A stretch of DNA of 64,000 nucleotides. It comes from Escherichia phage ime. Position 1 is the first letter of the stretch, and each line of letters opens with the position of its first letter. A program made the translations under genes and the position numbers. The stretch lies in sequence record MN850576.1. The stretch is one strand, 5' to 3'. Shown one piece after another: positions 45,785-59,125 of the stretch. Below the pieces are notes generated by a model. That model ran no database searches and was not told where the DNA came from. It saw nothing but the letters and a program-made list of their open reading frames with translations.

Positions 45785-48700
45785 TTAGTCGTGAGACTCG
45801 TTCCAAGGTCCCTGGAAGCTTGAGTTAGAACGACTAACGATCACAGTGGGACAGGAGATTGTGACACCTGTCACGCTAGACGTTGACCACGGTGTGTAAA
45901 TCTCGACAATAATGTCTATAGTTTGTTCACCTAGACCAGTTATCCCTACCGCACACATGCCGTTGTTGTCGTTTCCGTACTTCTTACCTGCAAGGATTTG
46001 ATGTCCGGCTATCCAAACGTTAAGCTGGGAGCCAGACAATGTCCCGTTTAGTTTAAAGAAGAATGTTACGTTCTTACCTTGTCCTGAAACGTTGTCCACA
46101 TATCTCCACCTCCAACGGCAAACCCTCTGCTGCGAGTTGTATACTGGAGGACAGTCACCGTAGGTTCTGTGTGCAACTATTGCACCTTCGAACTGGTTAG
46201 CACGGATAACAGAAGCTTCTACACGCCCACGGAAGGTACCTCCAGTTGCATCTATGGTACCCCTAAAGTTACCATTATTGGCATAAACATCTCCACGGAA
46301 GGTACCACTGGTGGCGTTAACTGCCCCTGTGAAGTTACCAGAACTGGCGTTGATGTTGCCTTTCACCCACACATCCATAAATTGGGCGTGCCCGTTCTTG
46401 TTAATGTACCAACCGTATTTATGGTACCCGTTGCCATCGTAGTTGTTTGACGAAATTTCTTGTGCGATCTTGGCAGAGGAGATCGTGCCATTCTCTATAA
46501 AAGCGTCTTTCAAGAACGCTTGGTTGTTCTTGATTGCGAAAGCAAGGGTTGCTGTTCCATTTCCAGGGTTGTATACCGCAAAATTGTTTGCACTAACCAT
46601 GAAGTAGGATTGAACTTGTCCTCCAGACCCCTCCATGCCTAGCTGGATACCTGCAACATACTTATTCCCTGCAGAGTCTACCTGAATCTTAGCTCCCCAC
46701 TGAGCATTTATTTTACCCTCAAGTGTTGTTACAGCTTTAGAGGTATTAGATACTGTAGCCCTGAGCTCATCAATATTACCCATTTCGTCAACAATTTCTT
46801 GTTTTGCAGAGGTAAGTTCTTGACGGATCGCTGTGGCTGTATTATTAACAAGATCAACTGTTGTACTATTAGTTTCTTGAATAGATGCTTGCAGATTGGC
46901 AACCTCTTTCTGCACATCATCTTCCAGCTTGGTGATCTTCCCTGTAGCTGCCACCAGATCCTGCTTAATAGCTTCCGTTGTCTTATTTAGCAGATCTGTT
47001 GTTGCCTTGTTGGTTTCTTGAATAGAGGAGTTAAGTTTACTCTCAGTGTTCTTCAACTCTTCCCGCAGAGTACCTTGAGTTGCAGTTATTTGCTCACTCA
47101 ATGCTTGAGTTTTACGATTAACAAGATCAACGGTTGATCTATTTGTTGTCTCGATTAGTGACCCAAGCCTACCAGACTCTGCTGCAAGTTTATCGTCAAA
47201 TGATTGCTGAGCTGCTACCAGCTTACTGTTAAGGGCAGAAATTTCTCCATTAACCCCTGTAAATTTTTCTGTCGTCTCTCTGACAACACCCTCTATTGTA
47301 TCCCCAAGCTCTTCAAAAATGCTAGTAACACGGTCATTGACTGCACCAACATTTTTATCCATTTCCTTGACTGCATTATCAAGATTGGCGGTAAGCTCTT
47401 TATAAGTCTCTGTCTTTTTGAACTCAGCATCAATCTGTGGCATAAGATCTTCTATGGATGTGTAACAGTGGGCTGCACACTCCACAAAAGCAGATGAACC
47501 AAAAGCATTTGTTGTCCTGATATACCAGTAATAAATCTTATCGTTCTGCAGACCTTCAGATGTCCAAGTTGAACCAACACCCATACGAGTGGCTTTTGAA
47601 GTAACGGTTGCATCACTGGTATCTGGCAATCTTGTCATCCCAGATGTCCAAAAGTCGTACTGGGTGCTTACACTAGCCAAGTCTCTGCTGTGCGGGATCA
47701 GGGTAATAGCAAAGTATCCCTGTTTAACTTCTACAGAAACCGGAGCCTCAGGTGCCTGAATGTTAAACTCACAGTATGCTTCTGGAGATACACCACCTTT
47801 ATAAGATGTTGCAACAACAGTGGCTGTGTAGGAACCTTTAGTCAGACCTTCAACACGGACAAACTGCTCAACTGTCTGCGCTGTCCAGACAATCTCTCCG
47901 TTTTTCCTGACCTGCACAATGTTTTGAGCATAAGTCCCAACGTTGTCCCAAGCCAAAACACCGTGAGTTACTTCTCCAGCTTGGAGAACGGAATATCTGA
48001 AGTTTTGCGGTTGAGCTACACCAGATGGAGATATCGGAATATCTACATCGCCAGAATCCGGAAGTTGCCCTGTGGCATCATTCCACTCTTTAGCATCTTG
48101 ACGAAGTTTTACCTTGACACCCCCCTTTTTGGTAAACTCCCATTCAAGAACTCTCATTTCTTGGCCCACTATACCAATACTTGGGAGGTCCATTGTAACG
48201 TAACGACCAGGTTTAAATTTGAAACCTCGCATATTGCAGGTGACTTCAATAATCCTGCCAGCTCTGGCACGTCTTAGGAAGATTGCAGAAACACGCTGAG
48301 CTTGATAAGGACTGGTAACAAAGCGATAGTCTATATCGATTATCTTTCTTTCTCCATCCTTCTCTATCCACTCTGGGACAAACACTGATGGAAAATCTGT
48401 TTCAGAATACCCTTTGGTAGGACTGGTGAATCTGCCAGTTATTGTGTTGGATCTTTTGTCAAATGAGGCTTCCGGATAGATCTTGACCTCACCACAGACA
48501 CAATCCTCACTCAGTGTCATTGTTGCCGGGCCATAGTATGCACCAACCAGCAAACCATACTTACCAGCTACATAGCTGAGATCTGCACCACAAGCTTTCA
48601 GCATTTCTGCCATAATGCTTGCTGGGGCCTCATCCATGTCAAACTCACCGTTAATGGTGTAACGTCGCTCACTGGTTCCGTCAGCGTTTTTTACCGCCTC

Positions 48701-49384
48701 GTCGCATATGTTGGCAGCCTCCTTGAAGGACTCCCAGTTAATGGTTTCGTCAGGACATTTAAGGTACGTTCTTAAATAGTCTAGGATCACCAAGGCCGCG
48801 TTATTGGTATACACCTCTTTACTGATACGAGGATCATAGCATTTTTTACCAACCTTGACAAGTGTAACGTTTGGCAACCCAAAAGGAAACTTGTTAGGGT
48901 CAAACCTGAAGCTGGCACGTAGCCAACTGATCCCTCTACCTATCATGTCGGGTGACCATGATGGGCAGTGTGTACCCATGAAAGGATCAGATGTTTTTCT
49001 GTCGTTATGTAGCTCCCACGATACCAGATCTCCATACGAGGAAATAGGATTACCGTCGATAAGTATATCTTCTATACCTTCCAGAGGGTGATTGGCAAGA
49101 ACAATAGCACAATGGAGGGTTCTGTCGCTATCCTGCTCCAAAAACGCAAGCAATCCGGATGTGCGTGTCTTCCCATACACTACAGAGCAGGGTGCAGCAG
49201 AAGATCTGAGAAGCTTTTGTCTATCTTGCTGACTTCTGTAAGATTTGTTGCCCTCAAAAATCTTATCCAGAGTTCTGGTGGTAACAGTGTTCAGGCTGTC
49301 AGCCAGAGCTGCCTTGGATGCGTTCCAGTCATAACTTGAAGATCTTGCAGAAGCAACGATGTTATCAATCATTGCAATTGGCAT
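45785..49384 (-). CDS. central tail fibre / host specificity protein (lambda J-like)
   Basis: 1199 aa; segments ...APEAPVSVEVKQGYFAITLIPH...YDFW...YYWYIRTTNAFGSSAFVE... and ...KYVAGIQLGMEGSGG...YFMVSANNFAVYNPGNG... resemble the central and C-terminal regions of lambda J as I recall them; long coiled-coil segment. Confidence 0.65.
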   Translation of the reverse strand: MPIAMIDNIVASARSSSYDWNASKAALADSLNTVTTRTLDKIFEGNKSYRSQQDRQKLLRSSAAPCSVVYGKTRTSGLLAFLEQDSDRTLHCAIVLANHPLEGIEDILIDGNPISSYGDLVSWELHNDRKTSDPFMGTHCPSWSPDMIGRGISWLRASFRFDPNKFPFGLPNVTLVKVGKKCYDPRISKEVYTNNAALVILDYLRTYLKCPDETINWESFKEAANICDEAVKNADGTSERRYTINGEFDMDEAPASIMAEMLKACGADLSYVAGKYGLLVGAYYGPATMTLSEDCVCGEVKIYPEASFDKRSNTITGRFTSPTKGYSETDFPSVFVPEWIEKDGERKIIDIDYRFVTSPYQAQRVSAIFLRRARAGRIIEVTCNMRGFKFKPGRYVTMDLPSIGIVGQEMRVLEWEFTKKGGVKVKLRQDAKEWNDATGQLPDSGDVDIPISPSGVAQPQNFRYSVLQAGEVTHGVLAWDNVGTYAQNIVQVRKNGEIVWTAQTVEQFVRVEGLTKGSYTATVVATSYKGGVSPEAYCEFNIQAPEAPVSVEVKQGYFAITLIPHSRDLASVSTQYDFWTSGMTRLPDTSDATVTSKATRMGVGSTWTSEGLQNDKIYYWYIRTTNAFGSSAFVECAAHCYTSIEDLMPQIDAEFKKTETYKELTANLDNAVKEMDKNVGAVNDRVTSIFEELGDTIEGVVRETTEKFTGVNGEISALNSKLVAAQQSFDDKLAAESGRLGSLIETTNRSTVDLVNRKTQALSEQITATQGTLREELKNTESKLNSSIQETNKATTDLLNKTTEAIKQDLVAATGKITKLEDDVQKEVANLQASIQETNSTTVDLVNNTATAIRQELTSAKQEIVDEMGNIDELRATVSNTSKAVTTLEGKINAQWGAKIQVDSAGNKYVAGIQLGMEGSGGQVQSYFMVSANNFAVYNPGNGTATLAFAIKNNQAFLKDAFIENGTISSAKIAQEISSNNYDGNGYHKYGWYINKNGHAQFMDVWVKGNINASSGNFTGAVNATSGTFRGDVYANNGNFRGTIDATGGTFRGRVEASVIRANQFEGAIVAHRTYGDCPPVYNSQQRVCRWRWRYVDNVSGQGKNVTFFFKLNGTLSGSQLNVWIAGHQILAGKKYGNDNNGMCAVGITGLGEQTIDIIVEIYTPWSTSSVTGVTISCPTVIVSRSNSSFQGPWNESHD

Positions 49385-51016: not shown

Positions 51017-51044
51017 AACAAAAAGCCCCCGCCGAAGCGAGGGC
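51017..51044 (-). terminator. rho-independent terminator (minus strand)
   Basis: Minus-strand GCCCUCGC-UUCG-GCGGGGGC followed by UUUUUGUUUG, downstream of the 110-aa gene. Confidence 0.5.
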
Positions 51045-51050
51045 AATACT

Positions 51051-51383
51051 TTAAAGTGCTTCCAAGGTGGATACTGATGGGTCGAACATGTTCAACCTTA
51101 TCGAATCTACAACTTTTCCGCTTTTAGAGATGATGTTTTCTGCATCCTCGTCCAGAGCCAGAACGTTAACATAAAACAATTCACTTTTCTCGCAAACTGG
51201 GTAGACAACCATGTTGCCAAATTCATCTTCGGCCTCATAAGTGTCTCCAGTCTCTGTGTAAATGAACCCGACAACCTCTACAAGAAGGGTGTTTTGCAAC
51301 ACCTCATTCTCGTAAAAGCCGATTTCGTCCATGAAACCGTTAAAATCCTCCCTGTCAGTAAATCCAAGGGTAAAAGTATTCAT
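51051..51383 (-). CDS. hypothetical tail-associated protein
   Basis: 110-aa acidic ORF. Confidence 0.45.
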   Translation of the reverse strand: MNTFTLGFTDREDFNGFMDEIGFYENEVLQNTLLVEVVGFIYTETGDTYEAEDEFGNMVVYPVCEKSELFYVNVLALDEDAENIISKSGKVVDSIRLNMFDPSVSTLEAL

Positions 51384-54300
51384 TATTCAACACTCTCCAT
51401 CATAAGCTGGGTGTCTGTCAGTGCAGAGTTCCAAACTCTTATGTCCTTAATATGACCAAATAAGTGTCTTTCACCTGTCGCCGTTTGACCACCAATGCGG
51501 ATGAAAGCACCTCCTGCCAGGAATTCCCAAGAAGACTGCGTTTCTGAGCTCACCAGTCCGTTAGCAAAAGAGCAGGTTTTACCGTCATCTTTTATCCTGA
51601 ACCCAACTTTCAATTTACGAACTTTAGCCATCTCGTAAACACGTCTGTTTGACCCTCCAATATCACAGTATGGATAACCATCATCCGCAATATTTGTTGC
51701 AGAGCCAAATCCCATGATAAATGCAGCACCGGATTGATGACCCTCTGTATCGATAACCCTAGGAGCTGCGTTAGGAGCTTTACCCCAACCTCTCCAGTTG
51801 GCATCCACCGTAGCAGCGATAGTGAATGGTCTAGGCGCTAAGTTATCCGTCATTGGGAATTTACAAAGATCTGCCGCCCTGGTTACAGGTGAAGATCCTG
51901 TAGGGATAAACGAGGACTCACAAGATCCTAACTCAAACTGAGGTATTGCAACGTCAACCCAATCCCCTACGGCATGTTGAGAACTCTCCGGCGGGGCAAT
52001 CTGAAACTGGCACCCGATCTTTCTGTCAGAGGCCACTGCCTCAAACGTAGCAACAACCCTTGTCCAAGCAGGTCCGGCTGTTTGCCATCTCTCAGCTTTT
52101 ACTTTAATTCTCCCCGCTGCACCCCCTGTTGTTTTCACTTCAAGTGTTGACAGGTTAACATAAGCATCACCTTGATATGTTGTGGTGGATCCGTCGTACA
52201 TGTCGAATCTTATACGCAGTCTCTGGTGAGCTTTACCGCCTCTTGCAATGATAGACCCAGTACAGAATTTCTCATCACCTGTTACATCGGCACCTCTGGT
52301 GGCTGGAACTACAGCCAAGTTTAACGCCGTTGTTTCTACACCGGACGTGGTGTTTACTGTAAATCTTGCACCTTTTGTGCCGTTGGTGTTTGTTACAGTG
52401 CTACCGACAGTAATCGCCTGCTGTGCACCCCATTTACTCGGGTCTTCACTGTTAAGCATTAGGTTTGTCCTTTGCCCTTCAATAAGCAGACCATCTCTTT
52501 CAAACCGAGGCTGATCGTTCTGAGCAGTAACCATCACACCGCGTTTAGAAAAGTATGTTGCTGTAGAAGGTCTGGAAAATACCATCTCTCCCTCACCAAG
52601 TGCAGGTTTTAAGTTGGAGGTCAAAGGTAACCAAAGATCAGGCATAACTGGGGCTGTTGTGCTTTCAGGGAAGCTTGTCCTCTTCCAAGGACTCCAAGCC
52701 ATTCCACTACCAGTGTTATTATAATACCTTTCCCATGTTCCACCAAGGTACATCTTATAGATCTGAATACAGCCCGTGCCTTCGTTAGCAGAGTTTCTAA
52801 GAACAATCAGCGTACCAGCCATCTGCTGTCCAGGCGGGTAATGTCTTTCAGCTGTAGCATTAGCATTCGCCTCTTGATGGTAGATACCTTCACGATCTGC
52901 TTTATAATCGTTAAGGTCGCTATTCCCCAGTCCTTGACCACGGTGCTGAATAACCTTGTTCCACGCTCTGTGATTTCCCTGCTCTATGGAACGAGTATAC
53001 AGCTGATCTAAGCGACCTGCTATCTGGAAAGCATAGTTCCCAGAGAATGCCACAGACAACCCGCCAACAACCATCGAACCTTCAGGTCCGTTGACGTTAC
53101 CAGCCATTATTTTAGAAGGGTTGTTATTCCCGAACTGGTTGTTCCAGTCTGCACCTGTGTGGCATACAAAACCACCAGGGGCTGAGAAAGTGCCATCTTT
53201 GTTGAAGTTGTAGAATCTGTGAGCAGAACCTACAACATCACGAACAATAACTTGACCAGCCTCTGGAGTAGATCTGAACTCTGCCTGGCCTTTGAGACCA
53301 GCACCATTACCGCATTTAGAGGTAAACGTACCGTTAGTCAGATCCTCTGTCCCATCTGATGCACACTGGAAGCCTGCATTAGAGAATAACGCCTTTCTAG
53401 GACTGCCGTAGCACAAATAGTCAAGACCGTCTGCCCATAACTCGACTTTTGGCATATTCATTTTGCTCATCACAGCATAGCGTTCAGCAGTACCTATATA
53501 GTGCCACTGTGTGCCGCCACCAGTGTAGAACCCTGAAGTCCCTTTGAAGTCAACAATAGGTCTGGTGTTGGTATTATTATCTCCAAGAACAGCAAGATTC
53601 AAATCTGCTGACTGGAGAGGTGCAACGAACTTAACACCGTCCTGATTGTCTGTTACAGAGCCAACCTGGTAATCTTGCTCCCTGGTAAACACCTCGACAA
53701 CATTTCTACTTGCGTATATGCTGACAGGGAAAGCACGCGCCTCCGCATAGAAAGCAACATATTCTTGTTTACCCCTTGTTGGAGCAACCATCCCAAGAAT
53801 TGCTTTTTCATTCTGGTAGAAATTTACTACCCCGTAGAAAGAGTCTCCTCTGTCTGTCCAACCACCAGTTCTATAGTGACACTGTAAGGTCGCACAGTTC
53901 ATAGGGTCACCGCCGGATGACGATCTGGTAACTATGGTAATATCAGTGCCAGTTGCTGGAGCATAGTACGGATCTGTTCTAACGATAATTGGGTAGTATT
54001 TCCCATCTTCCATCCCTGCGGTTCTTGGCAGTGTTAAGAAGTCTTTTACACCTGCTGCTATAGGAACTTTGAACAGATTCTGAGCATCTGCTAAAGTTGT
54101 AGCCCCAGTGCCACCTGCGGCTTGAGGTAGAGGTTCCCACTTGGCCTTCCGGTTGTTATAAACACCCCATTCCAGAGCGCCGTTACCGGATTCGTCCATC
54201 CCACCATCCCAGATAACCATCTTGGCGGCTTTCTTGGACCCCCAGAAGCCTCTTTCTGCTCCTGAACTACGAATCCATTCTCCAAGACCCCAGTTTGTCA

Positions 54301-55822
54301 GCTGACCAGTAAGATCCCCAACCTGCATATATTTAGGGCAGTCTAATACGCCGTCTTCGCGGAAACCTAAATATTTATGAGTTTCAGATCCTTTTGCACC
54401 TTTGTGCAGGTGGATTGTCAGCCAAGCCTTATTGTCGTTTCTTACCTCAGAGTAGATCCTATATCCATGCTCAAGAACACCATCGGTGTTATATTTATCT
54501 CCATGGAGAATACCTGAGGCCGATTTAACATCTCCAGAGTATTGAGCTAAGTAAAGGTGCCCGAAGGCTGGCGAGTTGTTTTTACCAAGGCCAATATGAG
54601 ATCTAAAGGTATCATCGTTACGAGGTCTGACCATCGGCTGCCATGCAGTCCACTGATTTGTGTTGGCCTGATAGGTTCTCAAATACCAAACATCTACGTT
54701 AGAGAATGGATAGTATTCCTGACGACAACCTGTACCTCCGTTAGCATTGTTCTGCCAAACAATCAAGTGACCAGCACCAGAACCTGCAGGGTAACCATTT
54801 GCCTCAGTTGCATAAGCAGTCATTGGCTGGTAGTATACACCATCCTGATTACCAGTCAAGTTATTGATATTGAAATTTGGCTCAAGGGCTGCACGTTGCT
54901 TATAGAAAGCACCGATATTGATACGGACTCCAGCGGCATCTCTAGCCCCTGTGCCGCCTTGCTCTATAGCAAGAGGTTGCCACGAAGCTGTTTGTTGGTT
55001 CCACATACCCCAACGGCCTGTTGCATCAAGCTGCAAGTACCCTGCCGTATTTAAATCATCTCCAGCACGGATAACTGTTCTTGTTGGGTTGTTTGCCTCT
55101 AGGCGTTTAAATTCATCACGAAGTGCTATTCTTTTCGTTGTTGCTACACCGTTGGTTACTGCAATGGTGTACATGGCTCCGGTGGTAGCGCCACGGAAAA
55201 TACCATCAACAGTTGTAGTATCACGACGAGACACCACACCGTTCAGAAATTTTTCACCAGCTGCTACAGAAGGGTAGTTGGTAGTTCTTCCCTCTTCAAT
55301 AACTGCAGGGCCAACAAAGTTATCAAGGTGAATAACATCGCCTACAGTGTGCACTGTACCAAAATCTACACGCTGTGCAAGTGCTTTGGCATCGTTAGCT
55401 GTCTGAACAGTAACATCCATTACATCCTGGACAGACTGCCCTTCGGCTGTCATGATCATAGATGCGCCAATGGTAGATTCCAGCTCCTCCCTTAAGGACG
55501 GGTCAGTATATACCATCCATGCAGCGTCAGTAATCCCACCATCGGAGTACGGTGAAGACAGTGCAGGAACAGTGTGTGGAAATTCGCCTTTCCAACGCAG
55601 GTAGAGGTCTTCCTCTTCGAAGTAGGCAAAATCCATTGGGCCGTTTAACTTACCACCTTCCTTAAAGGAGATTACATGAGAAACAGTCCCATCAACATGG
55701 ACAACATCGCCAATTTTTACACGACGGGTCAGGTCTGGTTGTTGAACAACCAGGTAATCATCCTCTGTCACTGAGGTAGTGGCAGGAAGAGATTCAATTC
55801 TGACAACTTTAATATCAGCCAT
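51383..55822 (-). CDS. giant tail fibre / tailspike-like protein with C-terminal ConA/LamG-like domain
   Basis: 1479 aa; N-terminal about 110 aa paralogous to ORF 58457..59125; internal repeats containing W.PL...GGTGA and GTGC.Q.Y; C-terminal ...GERHLFGHIKDIRVWNSALTDTQL resembles LamG-type lectin domains. Confidence 0.55.
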   Translation of the reverse strand: MADIKVVRIESLPATTSVTEDDYLVVQQPDLTRRVKIGDVVHVDGTVSHVISFKEGGKLNGPMDFAYFEEEDLYLRWKGEFPHTVPALSSPYSDGGITDAAWMVYTDPSLREELESTIGASMIMTAEGQSVQDVMDVTVQTANDAKALAQRVDFGTVHTVGDVIHLDNFVGPAVIEEGRTTNYPSVAAGEKFLNGVVSRRDTTTVDGIFRGATTGAMYTIAVTNGVATTKRIALRDEFKRLEANNPTRTVIRAGDDLNTAGYLQLDATGRWGMWNQQTASWQPLAIEQGGTGARDAAGVRINIGAFYKQRAALEPNFNINNLTGNQDGVYYQPMTAYATEANGYPAGSGAGHLIVWQNNANGGTGCRQEYYPFSNVDVWYLRTYQANTNQWTAWQPMVRPRNDDTFRSHIGLGKNNSPAFGHLYLAQYSGDVKSASGILHGDKYNTDGVLEHGYRIYSEVRNDNKAWLTIHLHKGAKGSETHKYLGFREDGVLDCPKYMQVGDLTGQLTNWGLGEWIRSSGAERGFWGSKKAAKMVIWDGGMDESGNGALEWGVYNNRKAKWEPLPQAAGGTGATTLADAQNLFKVPIAAGVKDFLTLPRTAGMEDGKYYPIIVRTDPYYAPATGTDITIVTRSSSGGDPMNCATLQCHYRTGGWTDRGDSFYGVVNFYQNEKAILGMVAPTRGKQEYVAFYAEARAFPVSIYASRNVVEVFTREQDYQVGSVTDNQDGVKFVAPLQSADLNLAVLGDNNTNTRPIVDFKGTSGFYTGGGTQWHYIGTAERYAVMSKMNMPKVELWADGLDYLCYGSPRKALFSNAGFQCASDGTEDLTNGTFTSKCGNGAGLKGQAEFRSTPEAGQVIVRDVVGSAHRFYNFNKDGTFSAPGGFVCHTGADWNNQFGNNNPSKIMAGNVNGPEGSMVVGGLSVAFSGNYAFQIAGRLDQLYTRSIEQGNHRAWNKVIQHRGQGLGNSDLNDYKADREGIYHQEANANATAERHYPPGQQMAGTLIVLRNSANEGTGCIQIYKMYLGGTWERYYNNTGSGMAWSPWKRTSFPESTTAPVMPDLWLPLTSNLKPALGEGEMVFSRPSTATYFSKRGVMVTAQNDQPRFERDGLLIEGQRTNLMLNSEDPSKWGAQQAITVGSTVTNTNGTKGARFTVNTTSGVETTALNLAVVPATRGADVTGDEKFCTGSIIARGGKAHQRLRIRFDMYDGSTTTYQGDAYVNLSTLEVKTTGGAAGRIKVKAERWQTAGPAWTRVVATFEAVASDRKIGCQFQIAPPESSQHAVGDWVDVAIPQFELGSCESSFIPTGSSPVTRAADLCKFPMTDNLAPRPFTIAATVDANWRGWGKAPNAAPRVIDTEGHQSGAAFIMGFGSATNIADDGYPYCDIGGSNRRVYEMAKVRKLKVGFRIKDDGKTCSFANGLVSSETQSSWEFLAGGAFIRIGGQTATGERHLFGHIKDIRVWNSALTDTQLMMESVE

Positions 55823-55857
55823 TCTTTCTCCTGAAAGGGGGCAAACAGCCCCCTATG

Positions 55858-58455
55858 TTAAAGGTACAATCCACGGTATTGAGCATAGAGGCCCAGACCG
55901 CGAAGGATTTCGCCAGAGTGATAGCCTACCGGATCAGAAACTGCCCAGCAGCCGTTTAAAACATTATCCCCATTAATGAAGTGGTGCTTTTGCAGTAGCT
56001 TCACACAGGCCTCTACAACAATATCTATTTGAGGTATTGTCTCTGAATACCCGCACAGACCTAGCCAGCAGCAACCTGCAAGCCATTCACCTACCACCCA
56101 CATCCTGTCCCCTCTGTCTTGATAAGAATATCCCCCAGAGGTGTTAAAGTCTGTAGGCAGATTTCCTGAATGAGATGACTGGAATCTGTTGAGGAACCAT
56201 GCCCATTTCTGGCAGAACAGGAACAGTCTTTCATCAACAGGTTCTTTATGTTTCTTGAGCTCATATATTGTGCGGCACGCAGCAACAAAAGATCTTGACT
56301 GGAGCTTAGAGTTATCTACCATCTCCCACCAACCAGTCAACCCTTCATTACCTCTCTGCCATACATAACGTGAGGCAACTGGACCCTCTGTCTTAAATGT
56401 ATTATTATACCAGACTTGAGCGTCATACAGAAAGCCTATTGTATTTGACAATCTATGGCGATCTATGTTTTCTGCACCCATGCAGTAGACTGCTGGGTAT
56501 TGCATGCCTGGGTAGGGCCAATTTGGCCTTTCCTCTAAGAGATAGTTTTCCTTATCTATCACCTTTCCGGCAGGGAACACACCTGGTGTGTGCCTGTATG
56601 CACCTTGCTTGTAGTTTCTAACATAGCAATCACCAACCTTAGCGGTTGATTCTGTCTTGCTTGCCATCCATACGCTAAACCAGATTAGATAAGCATCCCT
56701 ATCTGCAATATAGAATTGCGGCAGTGTGTTGACGCAATATAGATCAAACAAGCCATTACCTATCTGCCTGTCGCTTAGGGTGAAATCTACAGAGGTGAGT
56801 CCCTTAGGATTAGCAAAGAAAGGTTTAATCTCTTCTTCAGTGTGATGAGGTTGTGTCGGATCTAGTTTGAAATCTCCTAGAGTAAGAGTTTCTGTTATCC
56901 ATTGTCCATTAGTGGCATATAGATCAGCATACCATAACCACCTGTCTTTGTCAAGAAATTTGACCCTTACCATCTCATCATCTGATCGATAAGTTACTGA
57001 GTTTAAAGAAATCTCTCTTCCAAAATTGAAAGTTACTTTGCCTCTTGCTATATTACAACGGGTGAAGTTGTCAGAGTGGTTGTAAATGTCAGTAGCGTAC
57101 TGCATACTAACACTGGCACCACCGCTCACGGCAATATTTTCCTCTTTAGGTAAAAGGTACGGATTACCGTCTTTACCAACTACCTCTACGAAATCAGTAA
57201 CCTTGGCAACTATTTCTGTTACCTCTGCCCCTCCAAAAGGAACCCCTATCCTGTACTGTTTTTTGTTATTGTTGCCATCATTAAGGATGAAATGTGGCTG
57301 GAACAGAACCCCTTCTCCTCCGAAATTCATAACAATTTCAGCATCTCTGCCTATTTTGTATGTAGTCCCTTTTTGAATTATTTCGCAAGGCTGGCGTGCG
57401 TTCATTCTAAAGTTGATATACCCGTCACTGTCTCTGCTCATGACAGGAACTGTTCCTGCAACAAGACAAGTACCGTCTGTAAACGGTGCCTTAATCAACG
57501 TGGTCTTTCTAAACAGCTTGTCGTAGGCGTTTATATCACTGAAATTAAGCAACTTGTTGTAAGACTGTTTAAATGCGGTGTAATACTTTTCCTCACCTGT
57601 CAAGGTGTAGAGTTGATAACAAGCGTCACACCACATTTCTTCCCCGTCCAACTCTGGGGCCTGATTATCTGCAACCACGTTTATAGGATTTACAATTACA
57701 GGGGATCCAGCAGGTATCACCGATCCGCCCTGCTCTTGAGGTAATCTTACACAATAGGTCACCTTGTGGCTGCCTGTAACACCCTTATCTTGTAATTGGA
57801 TTGTGCCGAACTCTACAGACGTATGACCACTGTCGGCTATGCTACCGTTAGCCCAATAGCGGTTACCATCCCATGCTATGTACCACTCAACCCACCAACT
57901 TAATCCGGATGTTGTCCAATCTGGGTTAGCATCTGTGCCACCGTAAACATCAGAGTCTACAGTGTTTCTTCCTAACACACCGTTATACGCTTGGAATGCC
58001 TTGTCCAGGTATTCCCCCCATGTCGGAGATCCAGCTGGGATTTTTCCTCTACCGTTGGTAAAAGACACCACCACATCTTTAAACCCACCGTGTGATGGAA
58101 CCCCATCTGTGGATAGAGGGTAGTGGGACAATCTTTGCATTTTACTTTCTACGGCATATGCACCCAGAAGATGACTATTGTAAGCTTCCCAAGCATCTTT
58201 TGCCCTATCCAGATAGAAATCGCTTTTCGATGCCCTATATGCTTCAATGTATCCCAGAATCAACACAGCTTGGGACTCATGCATTGCCCAATCATTATTT
58301 ATCTTATTACCTGCCCACCCTGCAGCTATAAGACCATCAGGGTTTACTAGCTTATTTTGTGTAGGGGTGTTGGTAATACCTGTGTTGTTATCGAGGCACT
58401 TCCTGTGCCCCTCAATCATCTGAAATACGTTATCAATGTTGTGTTGAATACGCAT
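55858..58455 (-). CDS. putative polysaccharide-degrading tailspike (alpha/alpha-toroid glycoside hydrolase-like)
   Basis: 865 aa; aromatic-rich W/Y repeats at both ends suggest an (alpha/alpha)6-type hydrolase fold with a beta-rich insertion; AGGAG RBS inside the end of the upstream gene. Confidence 0.4.
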   Translation of the reverse strand: MRIQHNIDNVFQMIEGHRKCLDNNTGITNTPTQNKLVNPDGLIAAGWAGNKINNDWAMHESQAVLILGYIEAYRASKSDFYLDRAKDAWEAYNSHLLGAYAVESKMQRLSHYPLSTDGVPSHGGFKDVVVSFTNGRGKIPAGSPTWGEYLDKAFQAYNGVLGRNTVDSDVYGGTDANPDWTTSGLSWWVEWYIAWDGNRYWANGSIADSGHTSVEFGTIQLQDKGVTGSHKVTYCVRLPQEQGGSVIPAGSPVIVNPINVVADNQAPELDGEEMWCDACYQLYTLTGEEKYYTAFKQSYNKLLNFSDINAYDKLFRKTTLIKAPFTDGTCLVAGTVPVMSRDSDGYINFRMNARQPCEIIQKGTTYKIGRDAEIVMNFGGEGVLFQPHFILNDGNNNKKQYRIGVPFGGAEVTEIVAKVTDFVEVVGKDGNPYLLPKEENIAVSGGASVSMQYATDIYNHSDNFTRCNIARGKVTFNFGREISLNSVTYRSDDEMVRVKFLDKDRWLWYADLYATNGQWITETLTLGDFKLDPTQPHHTEEEIKPFFANPKGLTSVDFTLSDRQIGNGLFDLYCVNTLPQFYIADRDAYLIWFSVWMASKTESTAKVGDCYVRNYKQGAYRHTPGVFPAGKVIDKENYLLEERPNWPYPGMQYPAVYCMGAENIDRHRLSNTIGFLYDAQVWYNNTFKTEGPVASRYVWQRGNEGLTGWWEMVDNSKLQSRSFVAACRTIYELKKHKEPVDERLFLFCQKWAWFLNRFQSSHSGNLPTDFNTSGGYSYQDRGDRMWVVGEWLAGCCWLGLCGYSETIPQIDIVVEACVKLLQKHHFINGDNVLNGCWAVSDPVGYHSGEILRGLGLYAQYRGLYL

Positions 58456-58456
58456 C

Positions 58457-59125
58457 TTAGATAGCTCCTGCGATAATCAGTGCCCCGTACCAAGTTAACC
58501 CGTTGTCGTAGGTTTCCAACTTGAAAATGTCTGTTGCACCAGCTGTAAATGTTAGGATAGGATCTCTTCCGTAGGACCATTTAACATTACCAGGCCAATA
58601 GACTTTGTTGCCGCCAGAGGTCTGAGTAATGCATACGGTTATAGTTCTCGCCACCCCTTCAAGACCTTCTGTTTGATTTTCAAAAGAGATTGTGGTATTT
58701 GAAGTTAGTCGAACCTTAAAGGTATCCGCAACTTCAAGATCCATATCAAGCTGACCACCGATAGATCCGTAATCAACTATTCTGCCAGAAGAAGTTGCAG
58801 CAAGCTCACCAAAAACAGACCAGGCATTTGCAGACACACCCCCAGCACCCTCTACAGTGGAGTCTGGGAGGATTATTTTAGGATAATCCCCGTTCCACGT
58901 GTAGTAGCGCTTAGTTTCTGGATCATAAGCAAAGTCCTTCTTGCTCTTAAGATAACCACCCTCTGTGAAATAGACTATTTTAGTAATGCTGAGATCGTTG
59001 ACAACATCATCAATCTTAGCCTTTCTTGTCCCATCAGTCTGGTTGACAACCAAGAAGTCATCACTCAGGACTGTTTCTGCATCTTCAAGATCTGGAATTG
59101 GTATTGTAGGATAAGCTACAGCCAT
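58457..59125 (-). CDS. fibre/spike anchor-domain protein (N-terminal domain paralogous to 1479-aa fibre)
   Basis: 222 aa; shares LP...DD[FY]LVV.Q.D.TR..KI.DVV...FAY...Y.W.G[DE][YF]P with the N-terminus of the 1479-aa protein. Confidence 0.5.
   Translation of the reverse strand: MAVAYPTIPIPDLEDAETVLSDDFLVVNQTDGTRKAKIDDVVNDLSITKIVYFTEGGYLKSKKDFAYDPETKRYYTWNGDYPKIILPDSTVEGAGGVSANAWSVFGELAATSSGRIVDYGSIGGQLDMDLEVADTFKVRLTSNTTISFENQTEGLEGVARTITVCITQTSGGNKVYWPGNVKWSYGRDPILTFTAGATDIFKLETYDNGLTWYGALIIAGAI

Follow-up and report, generated by a model that had tools for sequence, protein, structure and literature searches.

A lateral tail fibre with a putative lectin-like head and a small co-inherited partner protein in the rV5-like Escherichia phage ime

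We analysed a 64,000-nucleotide stretch of DNA from Escherichia phage ime (sequence record MN850576.1; hereafter the window) and characterized in it a gene for a 1479-residue tail fibre protein. Taken together, the evidence favours the view, with a probability of about 0.7, that this protein is a long lateral fibre of the rV5-like type that carries a lectin-like, glycan-binding head and is served by a dedicated small helper protein encoded directly downstream. Judged from its sequence, the window belongs to a Vequintavirus, that is, to an rV5-like myovirus. The open reading frame (ORF) and its internal repeat are real, and the domains assigned to it in the original prediction were largely right; the architecture is richer than described there, with an additional domain of carbohydrate-binding module (CBM) type and a strictly linked small downstream ORF.

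Results

Two putative lectin-like domains form the head

The head of the fibre (residues 1051-1479; Table 1) consists of two domains. The first, which had been overlooked before, is a CBM-like beta-sandwich situated between the second knob module of the shaft and the C-terminal LamG-type domain. It was matched by the NCBIfam profile NF048003 (GTA_spike_fiber) over the full profile length (positions 1-182) at residues 1113-1317 with 77.1 bits (cut-off 36), and matches of CBM type dominated the structural comparison of this domain. The only sequence relative of the head in the PDB was Rcc01080 from the Rhodobacter gene transfer agent (RcGTA), whose product binds the capsular polysaccharide of Rhodobacter (PMC7296036; PMC10218006) and of which only residues 2-10 have been experimentally resolved (PMC7296036). 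The homologous CBM-like region spans residues 1080-1322 of the fibre and 43-277 of Rcc01080. Rcc01080 differs in being a single-chain decoration of the capsid pentons with 325 residues, which has neither a long shaft nor a terminal LamG domain.

For the last domain, a LamG-like lectin fold had been proposed. A match of the Pfam profile Laminin_G_3 to the last ~160 residues recurred in 27 of the 40 homologues, and the threshold was passed by more distant relatives with 28-37 bits at profile positions 5-149 (P0262, 37.3 bits; the SP15 fibre, 31.3; P0255, 31.1; P0265, 30.2). With relatives of the SP15 type added to the alignment, AlphaFold2 (AF2) produced a second model of the head with a predicted local distance difference test score (pLDDT) of 88.3 and a predicted template-modelling score (pTM) of 0.86. 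The proposed jelly roll thus stands by way of the homologues and a confident model, but not by the Pfam score of the fibre's own sequence, which lies below the threshold. On the basis of the predicted structure, we assign the last domain to the ConA/LamG jelly-roll class. The structural matches of the head included LamG, pentraxin and BoNT Hc domains, and the same two-domain fold recurs in many phage proteins in BFVD, including those of marine, Nonlabens and Delftia phages. A profile of the last domain retrieved only the glucan-binding repeats of glucosyltransferases from the PDB sequences, which we judged to be spurious.

The head is an exchangeable module

Orthologues of the fibre in other Vequintaviruses could be aligned to it only up to residue ~1048-1049, after which they continue into different tips, either Peptidase_S74 (proteins of about 1266-1272 residues) or Collar (about 1280 residues). 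No match to PF13884 (Peptidase_S74) was found in the 1479-residue fibre, and this domain is present in orthologues bearing other tips. The head itself terminates, with 29-50% identity, the side fibres of lambdoid prophages and of T1-like, T5-like and 9g-like phages, and it also exists as stand-alone proteins of ~416 residues. The DT57C proteins LtfA and LtfB were considered as characterized carriers of this head and were rejected, as they possess S74 tips instead. These alignments identify the last ~430 residues as a horizontally exchangeable unit with a break after residue ~1049.

A small ORF is inherited together with the head

The ATG of a 110-residue ORF overlaps the TAA stop codon of the fibre gene (TAATG), and the translation of the two genes is coupled. 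Two hairpins, at 55837-55853 and 51025-51044, together bracket the unit of fibre gene and small ORF. The phrog_1361 ORF also follows homologous heads in tonn and SP15, and it accompanied the head in all 75 IMG/VR loci with enough downstream sequence, a strict linkage that extends over lambdoid, T1-, T5-, 9g- and rV5-like phages; in the IMG/VR head loci, 21 small ORFs start with GTG. Among the annotated matches listed, out of 161 matching phage records, most have it next to an annotated tail or tail fibre gene. It is missing in AlexBoehm, whose fibre ends in the intramolecular S74 chaperone. The small protein is only 21-31% identical between head subfamilies. A phmmer search returned 22 clusters among 1.84 billion representatives, several of which are long repetitive proteins and probably spurious.

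As the simplest reading, we infer that the 110-residue protein is a head-specific assembly helper. Its putative chaperone role is deduced from synteny; the only family matched was phrog_1361, annotated as being of 'unknown function'.

Shaft and anchor of the fibre

No Pfam match was obtained for the shaft (residues ~146-1050). Self-BLAST of the whole fibre protein returned only the identity match, and its repeats emerged from the comparison of segment against segment. The two copies of a module reported in the original prediction, with peptides beginning at residues 343 and 996, were recovered in this way: the copies are 39% identical over 85 residues (BLASTP, E 4e-12), and their Smith-Waterman score of 135 compares with 30.7 ± 6.2 for shuffled sequences. 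As the maximum over 500 shuffles was 58, the similarity is far above chance. A profile built from 12 segments matched the knob of the R2 and R1 pyocin fibres in the PDB (6ct8, E 4.3e-7; 6cl6, E 1.6e-6; 6cl5, E 3e-6), so that the repeated modules can be regarded, at the level of sequence profiles, as homologues of the knob domains of R-type pyocins. Such knobs are trimeric beta-sheet domains of saccharide-binding fibres, which are thought to help in trimer folding and possibly in binding (PMC6116203).

Besides the knobs, the shaft contains a second repeat, absent from the original prediction, with the motif 'W.PL..GGTGA'. These junction repeats (residues ~270-331 and ~551-610) are 35% identical over 63 residues (E 3e-8). 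Shorter natural relatives have their deletion junctions exactly within the two kinds of repeat. In the 827-residue variants P0211 and P0213, knob 1 is fused to knob 2, and in the 1198-residue variants P0155 and P0166 (phage S127 BCL3), junction repeat 1 is fused to junction repeat 2. This location of the junctions suggests that the repeats mediate variation in fibre length by recombination.

The N-terminus had been described as a virion-attachment domain, and indeed residues 46-103 passed the gathering threshold of PF18668 (Tail_spike_N) with 40.4 bits (cut-off 25). In the PDB, this anchor matched by sequence the N-terminal parts of spikes and fibres from other phage tails (9occ_G, 9d84_A, 9lna_A, 4qnl_A and 4oj5_A). 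The anchor is also paralogous to the N-terminus of the 222-residue protein encoded two genes upstream (38% identity over 99 residues, E 2e-20).

Table 1 Features of the fibre locus in the window
Feature	Position	Strand	Properties
Lateral tail fibre gene	51383..55822	minus	Single uninterrupted ORF, 1479 residues, 161 kDa, ATG start
N-terminal anchor, residues 1-145	55388..55822	minus	Pfam Tail_spike_N core at residues 46-103
Junction repeat copy 1, 'W.PL..GGTGA' motif, residues ~268-331	54830..55021	minus	Similarity to copy 2
Knob-like module copy 1, residues ~315-400	54623..54880	minus	Repeat statistics; profile match to pyocin knob
Junction repeat copy 2, residues ~551-610	53993..54172	minus	Similarity to copy 1
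Knob-like module copy 2, residues ~966-1048	52679..52927	minus	Last module common to other fibre alleles
Exchangeable head, residues 1051-1479	51386..52672	minus	46 kDa; phrog_1419, E 6e-122 (residues 1080-1474)
CBM-like beta-sandwich ('GTA head spike fibre' domain), residues 1113-1317	51872..52486	minus	NF048003
Predicted LamG/ConA-type jelly-roll domain, residues ~1318-1479	51386..51871	minus	Laminin_G_3 in relatives; predicted structure
Small ORF	51051..51383	minus	110 residues, pI 4.05; phrog_1361, E 1.4e-26, 'unknown function'
Intrinsic-terminator-like hairpin	51025..51044	minus	8-bp stem with 7 G-C pairs, then TTTTTGTTTG; just after the small ORF
G+C-rich hairpin	55837-55853	minus	GGGGGC-TGTTT-GCCCCC, then TTTC; just upstream of the ribosome-binding site of the fibre gene
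865-residue protein	55858-58455	minus	BASEL annotation 'lateral tail fiber protein with glycosidase domains'
222-residue protein	58457..59125	minus	Tail_spike_N anchor; BASEL annotation 'sialidase domain protein'
1199-residue protein	45785-49384	minus	Lambda J-type domains Phage_Tail_Tip and Ig_J_second, long coiled-coil segment; myovirus setting

Locus and relatives

The fibre gene is preceded by the Shine-Dalgarno sequence AGGAGA 4 nucleotides before its ATG. At the nucleotide level it is 99.8% identical to its counterparts in Escherichia phages vB_Eco_Alma and phita32 and 93-97% identical to those in many other rV5-like phages, and at least 80% of the gene is covered in 34 phage records. 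Residues 1-1164 matched phrog_6578 ('tail fiber protein') in PHROGs with 1521.7 bits. In the BASEL phage CarlMeissner (Bas48), the orthologue is bas48_0026, a 'lateral tail fiber protein', and the gene order around the fibre gene corresponds to that from bas48_0024 to bas48_0031. To summarize, with full-length homology of anchor and shaft and a conserved position in the locus, the protein can be placed in the Vequintavirus lateral tail fibre family. The gene is therefore already known, as a catalogued member of a large and annotated family, and is ordinary in kind. It was not treated in a 2026 preprint on receptor prediction (bioRxiv 10.64898/2026.04.02.716166), and the 2025 extension of BASEL mentions the Vequintavirinae only in passing.

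Some of the sequence records deserve a comment with respect to the host. Phage phita32 has Klebsiella pneumoniae recorded as its host, and the fibre gene also turns up in 18 GenBank records under the name 'Campylobacter phage' (host C. jejuni), with ~94-95% identity among the matches listed, which suggests that the latter are mislabelled or contaminating rV5-like phages.

Upstream of the fibre gene lie the genes for the 222-residue protein with the anchor domain and for the 865-residue fibre protein annotated with glycosidase domains; the latter gave no Pfam match. Together with the 1479-residue fibre, these two proteins may form one branched fibre. Downstream follow a tail fibre protein of 196 residues, a baseplate protein, a cell wall hydrolase and a J-like fibre. 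Lateral fibres come in three sets in the Vequintavirinae, and three large fibre genes differ from one genome to another (PMC8594841). With the tape-measure gene as the reference for position, the 1479-residue fibre gene falls into one of the two blocks of strong variability, and the 1199-residue J-type protein is the counterpart of the second of the strongly variable fibre genes that BASEL names.

Across the window, no tRNA genes were found. Between about 22000 and 30000, both GC skew and AT skew flip their sign and then revert, which is consistent with a gene block transcribed from the opposite strand.

Discussion

Proposed function of the fibre

In the mechanism that we propose, the Tail_spike_N-type anchor would dock the fibre to the baseplate or to a network of fibres; the shaft of ~900 residues, with its two pyocin-type knobs and two 'GGTGA' junction repeats, comes next. 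The head would attach reversibly to a variable polysaccharide of the cell surface, such as O-antigen or capsule, and leave it uncleaved, and this binding would provide initial adsorption and a wider host range, while other fibres would deal with the conserved NGR/ECA glycan (ECA, enterobacterial common antigen) and the core of the lipopolysaccharide (LPS). The acidic 110-residue protein would aid folding or assembly of the head, in place of the intramolecular Peptidase_S74 chaperone of the alternative alleles.

The original prediction saw in this protein a strong candidate for the primary receptor-recognition protein of the phage, a role for which we found no support. Published genetics of the Vequintavirinae on E. 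coli K-12 locate the primary receptor at the ECA/NGR glycan, for which another fibre, a conserved deacetylase, is responsible, and the terminal receptor at the glucose of the LPS core (PMC8594841; bioRxiv 10.64898/2026.04.02.716166). Since the K-12 receptors are assigned elsewhere and the gene is one of the three allelically variable lateral fibre genes, an accessory glycan binder that extends the host range is the better reading.

Structure and homology support a non-enzymatic glycan-binding tip, and the following points speak against it or against the proposed helper. The fibre's own match to PF13385 (Laminin_G_3) reached 16.8 bits with the full protein and 19.3 bits with the head alone (cut-off 27.6). 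The first AF2 model, which was based on a shallow alignment of 40 sequences with ~48%-identical relatives, had a pLDDT of 30-45 for residues 1305-1479 and was unusable for the LamG domain, and the head structure is a monomer prediction. Searches of Pfam and NCBIfam matched the 110-residue ORF to no family, chaperones included, and its profile retrieved nothing from the PDB. BASEL phages with and without the head behave alike on K-12 glycan mutants (PMC8594841), and therefore the head is dispensable on these mutants. Finally, the actual ligand is a step that we infer from fold and kinship.

Alternative explanations

The head could instead be an enzyme, a glycanase or lyase with a ConA-like fold, in which case the fibre would be a depolymerase cutting O-antigen or capsule. 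We found no GH16 or PL7 catalytic motifs in the head and set this explanation aside because neither catalytic motifs nor matches to enzyme families were present; we consider it very improbable. A head with a protein, or a mixture of protein and lipid, as its target instead of a polysaccharide is conceivable from the structural comparison, as LamG, pentraxin and BoNT Hc domains all bind proteins in other systems. The sequence relatives of the head nevertheless point to glycans, the spike fibre of the gene transfer agent binding capsule; the matches of the first head domain are mostly of CBM type, the homologous side fibres of T5-like phages generally bind O-antigens, and the allelic variability of the fibre gene fits the diversity of glycans. 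A protein target is thus improbable.

The other two alternatives concern the division of labour between the fibre and its partners. By analogy with gp38 of T2-type phages, the 110-residue protein could be a distal adhesin or cap that stays on the virion and contacts the receptor, with the LamG head merely serving as its dock. The strict linkage of the small ORF to the head, its strong divergence between head subfamilies and the missing match to a chaperone family are all compatible with this, and 'chaperone caps' that remain on fibre tips have been described (PMC10579305). But so small and acidic a protein looks more like a helper than like an adhesin, its absence coincides exactly with the presence of an intramolecular chaperone, and the head possesses lectin-type folds of its own, which makes a receptor-contacting cap unlikely. 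Alternatively, the fibre could be mainly a scaffold that bears other fibre proteins of the locus, such as the 865- and 222-residue neighbours, as branches, its own tip being of minor importance in recognition. In other phages, branched assemblies are mediated by anchors of the Tail_spike_N type, and this anchor occurs in two proteins of the locus. In T5-like phages LtfA bears LtfB as a branch (PMC4728585), and in a 2026 cryo-electron microscopy study of the relative phi92, fibres I and III were assigned to genes and fibre II was not (PMC13450770). A minor role of the tip is nonetheless hardly probable, as the exchange of the tip between phages with retention of the shaft is the signature of a receptor-binding end, and the head is a widespread module of the type found in receptor-binding proteins.

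Comparison with known systems

From the Vequintavirus lateral tail fibre represented by bas48_0026 and phrog_6578, the 1479-residue fibre shows no essential difference: the gene is near-identical and the locus order is the same. Within this family, the alleles vary in the tip (S74, Collar or LamG-type head) and in the length of the shaft.

R-type pyocin fibres (6CL5, 6CL6, 6CT8), whose knob domains are homologous at the profile level, share the general plan of anchor, two-knob shaft, lectin-like C-terminal domain and separate downstream helper gene (pa0621). Their knobs stand in tandem, whereas those of the 1479-residue fibre are about 650 residues apart, and their tip is a small trimeric beta-sandwich of ~95 residues as opposed to the 430-residue, two-domain head described here. 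Segments of the shaft are 30-35% identical to the L-shaped or lateral fibres of the T5 type (pb1, DT57C LtfA/LtfB), which serve in accessory O-antigen binding and are dispensable on rough strains. The N-terminal anchors of these fibres are different, and they end in an autocleaved Peptidase_S74 chaperone, which is lacking in the 1479-residue fibre with its separate small ORF. The side fibres of lambdoid prophages and T1-like phages, with C-termini annotated as 'head spike fiber / LamG-like jellyroll', have the same head (at the identity given above) followed by the same phrog_1361 ORF; they differ in their phage_tail_N and CarboxypepD_reg N-termini, in their shorter shafts of about 650-730 residues and in belonging to siphovirus particles.

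Going further, we tentatively propose that the ~430-residue head and the phrog_1361 ORF constitute a self-contained, horizontally mobile receptor-binding cassette of an uncharacterised kind. The fibre would be trimeric with three independently folded two-domain heads, one per chain, as the single-chain RcGTA spike suggests; the acidic partner would belong to a new class of chaperones or caps for fibre tips; and the repeats, knob and junction alike, would also serve as the sites of recombination by which natural phages make the fibre shorter or longer. This combination as a whole is possible rather than probable.

Implications

Since the gene family is well populated, the analysis of this fibre leaves the general understanding of phage biology unchanged. 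Vequintaviruses, with their broad host range, are candidates both for phage therapy and for the biocontrol of E. coli in food safety, O157:H7 included. The 430-residue lectin-type head with its obligatory small partner gene is a concrete piece to swap when host range is to be engineered or receptors predicted, and this unit of head and partner is common to lambdoid, T1-, T5- and 9g-like phages.

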